Positions 13,541-17,097 of a DNA stretch of 40,000 nucleotides are shown in pieces. The notes beneath the pieces were generated by a model that was not told the origin of the DNA, did not search any database, and worked only from the letters and a program-made list of their open reading frames with translations. Every line of letters starts with the position of its first letter. Positions within the stretch are counted from its first letter, which is position 1. The translations under genes and the position numbers were made by a program. This stretch comes from Bacillus chungangensis. Lineage in GTDB: Bacteria > Bacillota > Bacilli > Bacillales > Bacillaceae_C. The stretch lies in assembly GCF_030812995.1 (NCBI RefSeq), contig NZ_JAUSTT010000001.1, forward strand, positions 182,396-222,395, read 5' to 3'.

Positions 13541-14020
13541 ATGAAACAGAAAGAATTATCAGCGTGGTTAAAAATGATCATTGTTATTTGTGGATTTTTT
13601 GGTCTGTTGTTGTGCATATATATTGGTCCTGAAATTGGAAGGGAAATGTTACTAGACTCAAAAAATTTGCAGGTGCTGTATACGCCCTTTGTTGCATTTA
13701 TTTGGATTACAGGAATTCCATTTTTCATTGCCTTAGCATTAGGGTGGCAGATATGTTCGGATATTGGCTCTGATCAGGCTTTTACCATTAAAAATGCAAG
13801 TAGATTGAAGATAATAAGTGTTTTATCAATAATTGAAGGTGTTTTATACATTGGGGCATTACTTTATATTTTCGTAGTCGGAAGTTATTATATGAACATT
13901 TTATTTGTTTTTTTACTGATACTATTTTTCTCAGTCGTTATTTCCGTATTTACTTCCATGCTTTCTCATTTAGTTAGAAAAGCTAGTGAAATAAAGCAGG
14001 ATAACGATTTAACGATATGA
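13541..14020 (+). CDS. Multi-pass membrane protein (YoaS/DUF2975-like, usual partner of YozG-type regulators)
   Basis: 159 aa with about 4 hydrophobic helices and RBS AAAGGGAG. Lies immediately upstream of a YozG-like HTH gene. Confidence 0.75.
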   Translation: MKQKELSAWLKMIIVICGFFGLLLCIYIGPEIGREMLLDSKNLQVLYTPFVAFIWITGIPFFIALALGWQICSDIGSDQAFTIKNASRLKIISVLSIIEGVLYIGALLYIFVVGSYYMNILFVFLLILFFSVVISVFTSMLSHLVRKASEIKQDNDLTI

Positions 14021-14028
14021 GGTGTTGA

Positions 14029-14238
14029 ATGATGACTATCATAGTAAATCTTGATGTTATGTTGGCTAAAAGAAAAATGAGTGTTACAGAATTATCTGAA
14101 AAAATAGGGATTACAATGGCAAATGTATCAATTTTAAAAAATGGAAAAGCAAAAGCGATTAAATTTTCTACTTTAGAAAAAATTTGCGAAGTTCTAGAAT
14201 GTCAACCAGGTGATATTCTAGAATATCAAAAAAATTAG
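14029..14238 (+). CDS. yozG: XRE/Cro-family HTH transcriptional regulator, YozG-like
   Basis: 69 aa. LDVMLAKRKMSVTELSEKIGITMANVSILKNGKAKAIKFSTLEKICEVLECQPGDILEY matches the YozG family pattern recalled from B. subtilis. Confidence 0.85.
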   Translation: MMTIIVNLDVMLAKRKMSVTELSEKIGITMANVSILKNGKAKAIKFSTLEKICEVLECQPGDILEYQKN

Positions 14239-14267
14239 ATTAGGGTTAATTAAATGAAGGAGAGTAT

Positions 14268-14489
14268 ATGATGAAAAATAAATATCGATTAGCTTCCACA
14301 CCAATATTTTTAGGGGTTTTATGTTTAGTTATCTATAGTATGATTGGTGCAAGATTGGAACCAGACGGTACTTTGGTTGAACCTTTCTTCTTGATTCCAT
14401 TAAGTTATCTTTTTGTTTTTAGTGGGATTATTACATTATTGTTTGTGGCTATTATTTCGGTGTTCAATAAAAGCAAACATAAAAATTAA
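14268..14489 (+). CDS. Small two-TM membrane protein
   Basis: 73 aa with two hydrophobic segments, RBS GAAGGAG. Third gene of the operon. Confidence 0.65.
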   Translation: MMKNKYRLASTPIFLGVLCLVIYSMIGARLEPDGTLVEPFFLIPLSYLFVFSGIITLLFVAIISVFNKSKHKN

Positions 14490-15015: not shown

Positions 15016-15050
15016 CGTCCCAGGAGAGATTCGAACTCCCGACCGACCTG
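15016..15050 (-). pseudogene. tRNA 3'-end fragment (T-arm plus acceptor 3' strand), probable prophage attachment-site core
   Basis: Minus strand reads ...aggtcggtc GGGAG TTCGAAT CTCTC CTGGGAC G: T-stem, canonical T-loop and 7-nt acceptor strand. No matching 5' acceptor strand (GTCCCAG), D-arm or anticodon arm is seen upstream. Confidence 0.7.
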
Positions 15051-15264
15051 TAACGTGTTATGTGTTAACCGTTGATATAACGCTATTTGATACGCTCATT
15101 GATTCGGTCATTTACCGAACTTTCGACCGATTTCATTATAGCACGTCGTATTATAGAAGAAAAGCGTTAACGGTATTCGAATCTGTTTCCGTTATGTTAA
15201 ACTAAAAACCAAGGGTATTGTGAGGTTTAAGTAATTAAAATATCTTCGATGAGTAGGTGCTACT

Positions 15265-15594
15265 ATGGGTGTTAAGAAAGTTACTCTTGTTATTCGCAAT
15301 GGAGAAGCAATCGATATCCGAACATCTGATCTTATTAAATTTGAGATTTCCGTCTTAAAGGAAAATCATAAATTGATAAATGACGGGAAGATATTAATAG
15401 ATGAAATCGAAAGATTGTGCGATGAATTTCGGCTAGAAATGAAATATAATCCTAGCTTAGAACGAATGCTTCGAGATGACATCGAAAAAATTATCTTGCA
15501 CAGGCAAAAAGAAAAAACAATATATTGTATTGATTTCCGAGTACAACAACAAGCTGGTCATGACAATGTGCTGTGGGTGTCTGGGTGGCAATAA
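15265..15594 (+). CDS. Hypothetical prophage accessory protein (109 aa)
   Basis: ORF with AGGTG RBS and its own terminator at 15594-15620. No recognisable motifs. Confidence 0.6.
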   Translation: MGVKKVTLVIRNGEAIDIRTSDLIKFEISVLKENHKLINDGKILIDEIERLCDEFRLEMKYNPSLERMLRDDIEKIILHRQKEKTIYCIDFRVQQQAGHDNVLWVSGWQ

Positions 15595-15620
15595 CTCCTC
15601 TTTTTAGGGGAGTTTTTTGT
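15594..15620 (+). terminator. Rho-independent terminator
   Basis: actcctc-ttttta-ggggagt followed by TTTTTTG, starting at the stop codon of the 109-aa ORF. Confidence 0.7.
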
Positions 15621-15647: not shown

Positions 15648-15682
15648 TTGCGTAGTATACTTAAGTTTAGTATACTTAAGTT
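15648..15682 (+). promoter_or_regulatory. Strong sigmaA-type promoter with a perfect 2 x 15-bp tandem repeat (operator candidate)
   Basis: TTGCGT (15648-15653), 17 nt spacer, TATACT (15671-15676). tagtatacttaagtt occurs at 15653-15667 and 15668-15682. Each unit contains the palindromes AGTATACT and CTTAAG. Confidence 0.75.
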
Positions 15683-16498: not shown

Positions 16499-17023
16499 AT
16501 GCAAGAAGCAAAACGAGCTATAGAATTTCTACTTTTTGAGTCAAATGTATCTAACTATAAAATATCCCAAGAGACGGGCATTAGCCAGCCTGTCCTTGCA
16601 AAATACTCGAAAGGTGTATCGGATATTGAAAATATGACGTTTGGCAATGCTATAAAACTGTACGATTGTTATTTGAAACTCAAGGGGGAAAAGGTGTTGG
16701 GTAATAAAGATAGAGACATGCTATTTGGAAAGTTATTTGCCACAGCAGATGTGTTTGGTAGTGGTGTTTTTGAAAAAGATAAATACTCTGTACAAAATAA
16801 ATACATGGAAAAATTTCAGAAAAAGCCGATGTCTACTTTTGTTAAAATCCATGAAGATTTGATGAATTACACGCACAAATTTGGGAGAAAAGAAGATATA
16901 TTGATGAAACAATTTGATGAAATAGTAGACGAGATAGGATTGGAATCTTATGACGACAGACCATTGGGAGATAAGTGGCTACTTGGTTTTTACAAGCAAA
17001 GGCATGATCTAGAGAATATTTAA
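16499..17023 (+). CDS. HTH (AcrIIA1-NTD/Aca-like) fused to a helical C-terminal domain resembling Cas8c C-terminus/Cas11c
   Basis: 174 aa, RBS GAAGGTG. The N-terminus NYKISQETGISQPVLAKYSKG is a clear HTH. The C-terminal motifs LFGKLFATADVF, KKPMSTFVKIHEDLMNYTHKF and WLLGFYKQRHDL parallel my recollection of the Csd1/Cas8c C-terminal consensus (..GRLFAvLE.., ..sAsatPa.vFp.Ll....hHl.KL.., ..FaLGYYHQR..). Not verified by search. Confidence 0.6.
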   Translation: MQEAKRAIEFLLFESNVSNYKISQETGISQPVLAKYSKGVSDIENMTFGNAIKLYDCYLKLKGEKVLGNKDRDMLFGKLFATADVFGSGVFEKDKYSVQNKYMEKFQKKPMSTFVKIHEDLMNYTHKFGRKEDILMKQFDEIVDEIGLESYDDRPLGDKWLLGFYKQRHDLENI

Positions 17024-17097
17024 ATTTAAGCATCTCCTCTCTGTGGGAAGGGCTATTTTTTAATTGACAAAAAATTTGAAAAAGGTAAAATTAAAGT

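Follow-up and report, generated by a model that had tools for sequence, protein, structure and literature searches.

Several described anti-CRISPR (Acr) proteins resemble one part or another of the protein considered here. AcrIB4 of Listeria seeligeri, an 88-aa inhibitor of proven activity, is a homologue of the last 90 residues of Cas8b and blocks type I-B interference upstream of target DNA binding, with Cascade assembly left intact (Katz et al., bioRxiv 10.1101/2023.06.24.545427; Nature 2024). In a later preprint, AcrIB4 was proposed to replace Cas11. About two dozen orphan viral cas8c genes, some of ~300 nt, are also listed in Table S3 of the first preprint, where none was tested (10.1101/2023.06.24.545427). 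[quoted passage not shown] It has the same architecture as AcrIIA1 and AcrIIA13/14, in which an N-terminal helix-turn-helix (HTH) autorepressor is followed by a C-terminal Cas inhibitor. Here, we analyze a gene carried by a prophage in a 40,000-nt stretch of the Bacillus chungangensis genome, hereafter called the window. Its product (RefSeq WP_307225763.1), hereafter the target protein, joins an HTH domain to a domain homologous to Cas11c, the small subunit of type I-C Cascade (Table 1). This candidate is most likely a self-repressing type I-C anti-CRISPR that would act as a defective small subunit. The gene thus probably encodes a bifunctional fusion of an Acr with an anti-CRISPR-associated (Aca) regulator, directed at type I-C CRISPR-Cas.

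The resemblance to AcrIB4 concerns origin and location. Both proteins are orphan homologues, borne by mobile genetic elements, of the C-terminal ~90-110 residues of a Cascade large subunit, a region that is separately translated as Cas11 in types I-B and I-C. Both also form a clade of their own, apart from bona fide cas genes, and occupy an acr-type locus. However, AcrIB4 derives from Cas8b (type I-B) and stands alone, whereas the target protein derives from Cas8c (type I-C) and is fused to an HTH; inhibition is proven for the former and predicted for the latter. The sequence relationship between the two is undetectable (profile of the target clade against AcrIB4: hhalign probability 0.08%; phmmer E = 1.5) and, since one originates in Cas8c and the other in Cas8b, the two captures were independent. 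With AcrIIA15, the target protein shares the order of its parts (N-terminal HTH, short linker, effector domain), homology of the HTHs and the presence of two similarly arranged operator copies in the promoter of its own gene or operon. Here, the difference lies in the effector. That of AcrIIA15 is an unrelated DNA mimic blocking the site by which Cas9 recognizes the protospacer adjacent motif (PAM), whereas in the target protein it is a helical bundle of Cas origin that presumably acts on type I-C Cascade. By analogy, the target protein may work as AcrIB4 and AcrIIA15 combined, while being a member of neither family. A third comparison can be made with AcrIF3, another protein of phages, which mimics the helical bundle at the C-terminus of Cas8f, a type I large subunit, and turns this likeness to account, as Katz et al. 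relate in their introduction. AcrIF3, however, has no detectable sequence homology to Cas8f and acts through binding to Cas2/3, whereas the homology of the target protein to a Cas protein is clear and its predicted target is Cascade.

An initial annotation of the gene, made from the sequence alone, had presented the product as what would be a new kind of anti-CRISPR, a poison subunit of Cascade or a decoy, while noting that viral Cas-derived inhibitors and HTH-Acr fusions both have precedents. These precedents exist (AcrIB4 and AcrIIA15, respectively). The concept was preceded by AcrIB4, and to this extent novelty was overstated; the family, its type I-C origin and the fusion nevertheless appear to be undescribed. 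In the literature searched, no description was found of the target family, of its fusion to an Aca or of the residue-level "defect" reported below.

TABLE 1. Features of the target gene and its operon (positions in the 40,000-nt window).
Feature	Position	Strand	Description
Terminator-like hairpin and T-run	15593..15614	+	9-bp stem with 4 GC pairs; parts an upstream 109-aa ORF (15265-15594) from the operon
-35 element of predicted promoter	15648..15653	+	TTGCGT, from a seven-locus alignment; TTGACT at most homologous loci
-10 element of predicted promoter	15671..15676	+	TATACT, 17 nt after the -35 element; kept in 6 of 7 loci (TAAACT in L017)
Candidate operator	15653..15682	+	Two exact 15-bp direct repeats TAGTATACTTAAGTT; putative binding site
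First operon gene, 139 aa	15708..16127	+	Pfam PF07410, E = 1.8e-14: Phage_Gp111-type N-terminal helical hairpin
Second operon gene, 102 aa	16176..16484	+	Variable cassette position; recurs beside Cas11c-like genes
Target gene	16499-17023	+	ATG start, 174 aa and stop; SD-like sequence aagaaggtg upstream
HTH of AcrIIA15-NTD/Aca11 type (residues 1-65)	16499..16693	+	PDB sequence matches, Foldseek, PHROG; predicted dimeric autorepressor
Candidate internal translation start in linker	16682..16699	+	SD-like AAGGGGG, 8 nt, in-frame TTG (Leu67)
Cas11c-like helical bundle (residues 69-171)	16703..17011	+	Profiles, structure, clade, residue loss, charge, dN/dS
ORF, open reading frame; SD, Shine-Dalgarno; NTD, N-terminal domain; dN/dS, ratio of nonsynonymous to synonymous substitution rates.

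The Two Domains of the Target Protein

The ORF and the three motif blocks quoted from it in the initial annotation are all found as described. Both halves of the proposed architecture, an XRE-type HTH at residues ~1-65 and, on a prophage, a bundle resembling the C-terminus of Cas8c or Cas11c, are borne out by sequence profiles and by structure. Each of the two database names captures one half of the protein: in RefSeq it is a "type I-C CRISPR-associated protein Cas8c/Csd1" and in UniRef an "XRE family transcriptional regulator." The AlphaFold2 model consists of two helical domains (pLDDT 81).

Residues 69-171 align with positions 450-558 of the 559 positions of Pfam PF09709 Cas_Csd1 (E = 2.7e-13; 49.9 bits, for a gathering score of 27) and with positions 472-580 of the 588 positions of TIGR01863 (E = 2.4e-13; score 49.5). 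The same residues are matched by four Cas8c models of PADLOC (best E = 4.7e-18). A profile of the family aligns end-to-end with the solved Cas11c of D. vulgaris (7kha_K; residues 8-118 of 124, E = 1.1e-5). In Foldseek searches, the top matches of the AlphaFold2 model are Cas8c/Cas11c chains, every type I-C Cascade entry of the PDB included; with the Cas11c chain 8dex_J, the TM-score is 0.74 and the root-mean-square deviation (rmsd) 2.7 Å over 114 columns. This similarity is far above chance: the C-terminal domain is homologous to the C-terminus of Cas8c, that is, to Cas11c. Besides the bundle fold, the Cas11c proteins of D. vulgaris (7KHA, 8DEX) and N. lactamica (8G9S) have in common with it the motifs DR..FGRL, P..T and LLG(F/Y)Y.Q.

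Despite its RefSeq name, the target protein is not a Cas8c, because it matches only the last fifth of the profile, because its TIGR01863 score lies far below the equivalog cut-off of 218.65 and because no cas locus accompanies it. A full-length Cas8c has ~600 aa and includes N-terminal PAM-recognition and body domains, whereas only the last ~110 profile positions are represented here. Neither is the protein a Cas11c in the usual sense. It has the sequence features and the fold of Cas11c, but it is encoded by a separate prophage gene devoid of a cas8c body, whereas Cas11c arises by internal in-frame translation within cas8c. In addition, Cas11c is basic and contacts the non-target strand (NTS) of DNA, whereas the target domain is acidic, lacks these contacts and is fused to an HTH.

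The HTH belongs with regulators of anti-CRISPR operons. Residues 1-60 match the N-terminal domain of AcrIIA15 (8jfr; E = 2.4e-4, 31-33% identity) and Aca11 (9lx2; E = 0.015), and the modeled domain superposes on both with an rmsd of 0.9 Å and TM-scores of 0.82-0.88 (Foldseek). Matches were also obtained with phrog_1529 (E = 1.9e-13) and with adc43, a Listeria anti-defence candidate (20 bits). Thus, the Aca-like nature first assigned to this domain is retained, with AcrIIA15-NTD, Aca11 and adc43 as its relatives, but the likeness to AcrIIA1 put forward at the same time is only marginal: the N-terminal domain gives 9.4 bits with AcrIIA1 in a 20-sequence database, and the C-terminal domain is unrelated to the Cas9-binding domain of AcrIIA1. 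Concerning DNA contacts, K31 and T43 of AcrIIA15 correspond to K35 and T47 of the target protein, which are invariant in the family, and K37 and S46 correspond to S41 and N50, so that two of the four contacts are identical. Two of the six contacts of Aca11 are identical as well (Y18 = Y20, Q28 = Q30). Aca11 of Streptococcus also shows the pattern Y..IS...G..QP....(S/D)IEN(L/M)T within the same HTH fold. It is, however, a standalone dimeric 8-kDa repressor of type II-A acr operons, and its KKR motif is not conserved in the target protein.

Both domains are under purifying selection. Across the family, dN/dS values of 0.05-0.13 were obtained (0.08-0.10 for the HTH and 0.05-0.13 for the Cas11c-like domain).

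Loss of the Non-Target-Strand Groove

In D. vulgaris Cascade, the positions of Cas11c that contact the NTS are the aromatics 566/567, F605, K607 and K608. The two lysines are the sole highly conserved basic NTS contacts of this Cas11c, and structures of the N. lactamica complex show the same NTS groove along the Cas11 subunits. These positions were compared between 56 bona fide Cas8c and the 44 members of the orphan clade to which the target protein belongs (see below), the alignment of Bacillota Cas8c with the orphans being gap-free in both regions.

The Y567 column is aromatic in 47 of the 56 Cas8c sequences and in a single orphan, with Leu in 39 of 44 orphans, including the target protein. 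Aromatic residues occupy the H566 column in 31 Cas8c and in essentially no orphan. For F605, Tyr or Phe is present in 24 Cas8c, whereas the tabulated orphan residues include three His and neither Tyr nor Phe. Lys or Arg is found in the K607 column in 36/56 Cas8c as compared with 6/44 orphans, and in the K608 column in 23/56 as compared with 3/44. The fold-defining positions R498, G503 and P536 are, by contrast, kept in Cas8c and orphans alike. In the target protein, the tail reads ...GFYKQRHDL-E-N-I, where Cas8c has ...GYY.QR.AL-(Y/F)-T-K-K.

Surface charge is shifted in the same proteins. The median isoelectric point (pI) is 5.9 in the orphan clade, for a net charge of -3, as compared with 8.1 in the C-terminal domains of Cas8c (p = 1e-8). 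The Cas11c-like domain of the target protein has a pI of 5.9 and a net charge of -2, its D. vulgaris counterpart a pI of 8.9. Neither the target protein nor its clade, therefore, has the conserved NTS groove and basic surface of Cas11c. Maintenance of fold and core together with deletion of the DNA groove is the pattern that would be expected for a defective small subunit.

An Old Clade of Orphan Cas11c-Like Proteins

A word-indexed search yielded seven full-length homologues of 174-183 aa (57-94% identity), as well as three proteins that have only the HTH in common with the target protein and whose C-termini are unrelated. The C-terminal domain was also used for an exhaustive profile search of 1.84 billion cluster representatives, which gave 835 relatives (E <= 1e-3). 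Among the best 150 of these, ~65 are short orphans: the Cas11c-like domain is alone in ~27, is preceded by an AcrIIA15-type HTH in ~14 and carries a C-terminal extension in ~15. Where scanned, these extensions are HTH_17 or HTH_59 domains. In a domain-level neighbor-joining tree, 44 of 63 short representatives group in a single clade that excludes every Cas8c and adjoins the canonical C-termini of Bacillota Cas8c (bootstrap 78/100 exact, 95/100 relaxed). The orphan clade is an old one, distinct from functional Cas8c. The other 19 short proteins are basic and scattered among Cas8c, and probably represent genuine Cas11c, called as ORFs, or fragments.

Since the clade spans standalone forms, forms with an N-terminal HTH and forms with a C-terminal HTH_17 or HTH_59, the Cas11c-like domain is its constant functional unit. 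This domain was joined to regulators repeatedly, with three HTH families and at either end, as is typical of Acr-Aca fusions. Such independent fusions argue for the helical domain as effector, regulated by the HTH.

Orphan loci lie at prophage edges by lysis genes, in Lederbergia (L001), in metagenomic contigs (L005-10 and L014-18) and in IMG/VR contigs (L020-27), as well as on Paenibacillus plasmids (L011-13). No cas operon was seen at the orphan loci checked (L001, L005-18 and L020-27). In the IMG/VR scan, the subgroup with a C-terminal HTH is represented by nine contigs. When phages were searched by tblastn, the HTH alone was matched, being terminally located in Javan prophages of Streptococcus and also present in two phages of Staphylococcus. 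Similarly, only HTH matches were found in BFVD.

Some of these homologues deserve mention in their own right. P0084 (L008:7361-8074, 237 aa) combines a Cas11c-like domain, an AcrIIA15-type HTH and an acidic C-terminus of ~65 aa; in its promoter, a different palindrome, ACCGTAAACGGT, is located in the -35/-10 spacer. The plasmid orphans are WP_187298948.1 of Paenibacillus polymyxa SC2 plasmid pSC2 (L013:5998-6324), a standalone protein of 108 aa encoded near genes for an LPD28-domain protein and DNA polymerase IV, and the products of L012:1233-1724 (163 aa) and L011:6007-6468 (153 aa, including an HTH at the C-terminus). Of these three, two are annotated "Cas8c/Csd1," with no cas operon nearby. 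P0012 (POD46303.1, 179 aa), which has an HTH and a Cas11c-like domain, comes from a 36-kb contig deposited as Pseudomonas syringae pv. syringae; since the distribution otherwise falls in Bacillota, either contamination or genuine transfer may account for this contig.

The same search revealed an arrangement within Cas8c itself. About 48 of the best 150 representatives are Cas8c of 850-920 aa with two or three tandem C-terminal Cas11c-like domains. Limosilactobacillus mucosae WP_270638413.1 (P0013, L019:3499-6159) has three, and is encoded in a canonical cas3-cas5-cas8c-cas7-cas4-cas1-cas2 operon; it is the one tandem-domain Cas8c whose context was checked. In these proteins, the two Cas11c subunits look covalently fused to Cas8c instead of internally translated, which would give a fused minor filament. 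No description of this variant was found in the literature searched.

Operon, Promoter and Operator

The target gene is the last of a three-gene operon preceded by a predicted promoter with a duplicated candidate operator (Table 1). Each copy of TAGTATACTTAAGTT holds the palindromes AGTATACT and ACTTAAGT. [quoted passage not shown] The pair is the only tandem repeat within the window; for TATACTTAAGTT, two exact copies are observed, as compared with 0.27 expected at up to one mismatch. Six other loci, unrelated in their flanking DNA, preserve this layout of operator and promoter (the -35 element being TTGACT) ahead of the homologous operons. At the most divergent of them, L018 (protein 57% identical), CTTAAG is changed to CTTTAG in both operator copies. 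Positions 15654-15676 can also be read as a single element, AGTATA-N11-TATACT. The experimentally defined operator of Aca11 is AGTATA-N12-TATACT; the outer half-sites are the same and the spacing differs by one nucleotide. A palindromic candidate operator thus overlaps the promoter of the operon. At the sequence level, the predicted autorepression of the operon by the HTH is well supported, because the duplicated operator is conserved, because its half-sites resemble those of Aca11 and because two of the four AcrIIA15 contact residues are kept (as K35 and T47).

Homologues of the first operon gene, here called Gp111-like, immediately precede Cas11c-like genes in L014-18, L008-11 and L020-23, with both types of fusion. 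They are full-length in L015/16 and L020-23 (42-48% identity) and limited to the N-terminal part in L008-11, L017 and L018. An index of 5.8 billion proteins contains just two relatives of the 139-aa protein. Its AlphaFold2 model has a beta-rich C-terminal domain, predicted with low confidence (pLDDT 60) from a three-sequence alignment. The Gp111-like protein may be a further anti-defence gene product. By eye, its N-terminus had seemed similar to that of AcrIIA3, but AcrIIA3 gives no match to Pfam Gp111 and the phmmer E-value is 0.85, so that this idea was rejected.

The second gene encodes a 102-aa protein with no Pfam or PHROG match. By tblastn, homologues of it were located immediately before Cas11c-like genes in L014 (86%), L025 (47%) and L027 (39%). 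As an upstream partner, the Gp111-like gene recurs more frequently than the 102-aa gene. An RNA anti-CRISPR, or solitary type I-C repeat, was also looked for at the locus: no 3' half of a Bacillus-type I-C repeat was found with up to three mismatches, and there was no notable Rfam match.

Proposed Mechanism and Alternatives

The following mechanism can be proposed. The HTH would dimerize and bind the duplicated operator over the spacer and -10 element of the promoter (15648-15682), and in this way repress its own operon, which comprises the Gp111-like gene, the 102-aa gene and the target gene. The Cas11c-like domain would dock at the Cas11c site in the belly of Cascade, on the C-terminal "nucleation" domain of Cas8c and the Cas7 backbone. 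Docking appears possible because the small-subunit fold and the core motifs are kept. Cascade having incorporated this domain would then fail to stabilize the R-loop, since the aromatics and lysines of the NTS groove are lost and the domain is acidic. Such a complex could neither bind target DNA stably nor license Cas3. The role of poison subunit or decoy suggested in the initial annotation gains further support from the acr-typical site of the gene by the lysis cassette, the conserved operator of its operon, its membership in an orphan clade distinct from real Cas8c, and the specific loss in that clade of NTS contacts and basic charge.

Several observations weigh against this proposal. The loss of residues and the acidic surface would also be compatible with recruitment of the domain to a protein-protein role of another kind. 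The neighboring genes of the operon match no known Acr in Pfam, in PHROG or among the Listeria Acrs and candidates tested. By tblastn, the domain occurs in none of the isolated sequenced phages of the collection searched, and the close family has no match in IMG/VR. The C-terminus of P0084 resembles AcrIC5, a Pfam family of type I-C anti-CRISPR, with 23.8 bits that fall short of the gathering score (27); this segment, the only direct link to a type I-C anti-CRISPR, is to be taken as a hint. As for the host, B. chungangensis is absent among the 120 listed of 4,644 Cas8c relatives, by which a type I-C system in the host is neither found nor excluded. A genome scan with the family profile returned only Lederbergia and two weak archaeal loci, the source genome seemingly lying outside the collection. 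Type I-C is nevertheless widespread in Bacillales, where it occurs in Lysinibacillus, Heyndrickxia, Cytobacillus, Bacillus spp., Paenibacillus and megaplasmids of the B. cereus group.

The two activities might also be coupled. In an elaboration of the proposal that we regard as unlikely, docking of the Cas11c-like domain into Cascade would control the repressor, and a free domain might be produced in addition. Through dimerization of the HTH, two Cas11c-like domains would be offered, as many as there are Cas11c positions in type I-C Cascade. Engagement of Cascade would then either remove the repressor from the operator or anchor Cascade at it, and operon expression would be set by the amount of Cascade. 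As for the free domain, the SD-like AAGGGGG in the linker is the site of the target gene that pairs best with the anti-SD sequence. The corresponding site is also the best in the homologues of L014 and L017 (AAGGAGG, 8 nt, GTG), and is weak in those of L015, L001 and L018. Initiation at Leu67 might speculatively yield a free Cas11c-like domain, echoing the production of Cas11c from cas8c. The SD-like site could, however, be a mere by-product of Lys, Glu and Gly codons.

Another possibility, to which we give a similarly low probability, is that the target protein is essentially an Aca-type repressor. Its Cas11c-like domain would then be a sensor of Cascade or Cas8c, by which derepression of the operon is adjusted to the CRISPR levels of the host, or a multimerization module, and the effectors would be the Gp111-like and 102-aa proteins. 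This would agree with the support for the HTH and operator, with the conservation of the two partner genes and with the sensing of Cas9 levels suggested for AcrIIA1 and AcrIIA15. On the other hand, the ~27 representatives of the clade that carry no HTH imply that the Cas11c-like domain functions by itself. Its independent fusion to three HTH families, at either end, better fits an effector gaining a regulator than a regulator gaining a sensor. Finally, AcrIB4 shows that a standalone homologue of the C-terminus of a large subunit is sufficient as an inhibitor.

Inhibition could also occur by sequestration. The domain would bind the free nucleation surface of Cas8c, Cas7 or Cas3, thereby blocking assembly or Cas3 recruitment, and the HTH dimer might tether two targets. 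Homology and clade data speak for sequestration as much as for a defective subunit. Moreover, Cas11 subunits nucleate on the C-terminal domain of Cas8, and dimeric AcrIIA15, on operator DNA, holds two Cas9-sgRNA complexes together. With AcrIB4, the closest analogue, all Cascade subunits nevertheless co-purify and the block is at DNA binding. The specific loss of the NTS groove is also most simply explained by occupancy of the Cas11c position within the complex. We therefore find sequestration rather improbable, and retain incorporation of a defective subunit as the better account.

It is far less likely that the gene is neutral or beneficial to the host, providing an extra small subunit that would aid or modulate the type I-C immunity of the lysogen, for instance in superinfection exclusion. 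Retention of the fold and core motifs would be in line with such a role, and an initial stimulation of immunity by newly captured viral cas genes was raised by Katz et al. However, the NTS-binding residues and basic charge needed for small-subunit function are lost clade-wide, the clade is old and stands apart from functional Cas8c, and its domain is fused to anti-CRISPR-type repressor domains at an anti-defence-type locus. Lastly, a decaying fragment of a captured cas8c, or a functionless annotation artefact, which the RefSeq label Cas8c/Csd1 covering only the last fifth might evoke, is refuted by conservation and selection: the ORF is intact with its ribosome-binding site, seven full-length homologues and a clade of 44 clusters exist, both domains have low dN/dS, and the operon structure and operator are conserved.

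If the proposal of a defective small subunit is correct, type I-C would gain its first Cas-derived inhibitor in the target protein. With it, the conversion of the Cascade small subunit into a poison by a mobile element would have two independent instances, which would make "small-subunit poisoning" a general strategy that extends beyond Listeria. The family would then represent a natural experiment on Cas11, in which the fold and interfaces are kept while the NTS groove and basic charge are removed; restoring Tyr in place of Leu, together with the YTKK tail, should shift the inhibitor toward a working subunit. Type I-C systems are widely used for long-range genome deletion and CRISPR interference, and the HTH fusions with their conserved operator would offer a compact, self-regulated off-switch for such tools. 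The Gp111-like and 102-aa partners would provide a guilt-by-association handle on anti-defence genes in Bacillales prophages. The RefSeq label "Cas8c/Csd1" on orphans of 100-190 aa would, moreover, inflate the counts of type I-C systems and hide an anti-defence family.

Genomic Setting

The first 14.5 kb of the window (1-14.5 kb) correspond to the core chromosome of the host, with genes for LonB, ClpX, trigger factor and Nramp. From 17 to 40 kb, the minus strand carries the late region of a myovirus-type prophage, comprising genes for terminase, portal, capsid, tape measure, baseplate J, tail fibre, holin and endolysin. The operon of the target gene, on the plus strand, is wedged between the two, and the target gene itself is convergent with the endolysin gene. 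Such a site at the edge of a prophage, beside the lysis genes, is where prophages of Firmicutes keep their acr loci. No cas gene is found in the 40-kb window; in particular, there is no cas3-cas5-cas8c-cas7-cas4-cas1-cas2 operon of type I-C.

Three further features were seen around the locus. A sigma-70 promoter-like site at 17064-17091 (+), composed of TTGACA, 16 nt and TAAAAT (11/12 of the consensus), occupies the gap separating the target gene from the 3' end of the endolysin gene, which converges on it. It is directed into the endolysin gene in antisense, and no notable ORF follows it. At ~15020-15060 on the minus strand, ggtcgggagttcgaatctctcctggg resembles by eye the T-arm and acceptor half of a tRNA, as would a tRNA 3' fragment at an att site; neither ARAGORN nor Rfam calls it, and this candidate was set aside. 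Finally, on the host side just outside the prophage, positions 13541-14489 (+) hold three small genes, for a membrane protein with DUF2975, an HTH_26 regulator and a membrane protein with DUF3955; the first two look like a familiar pairing.

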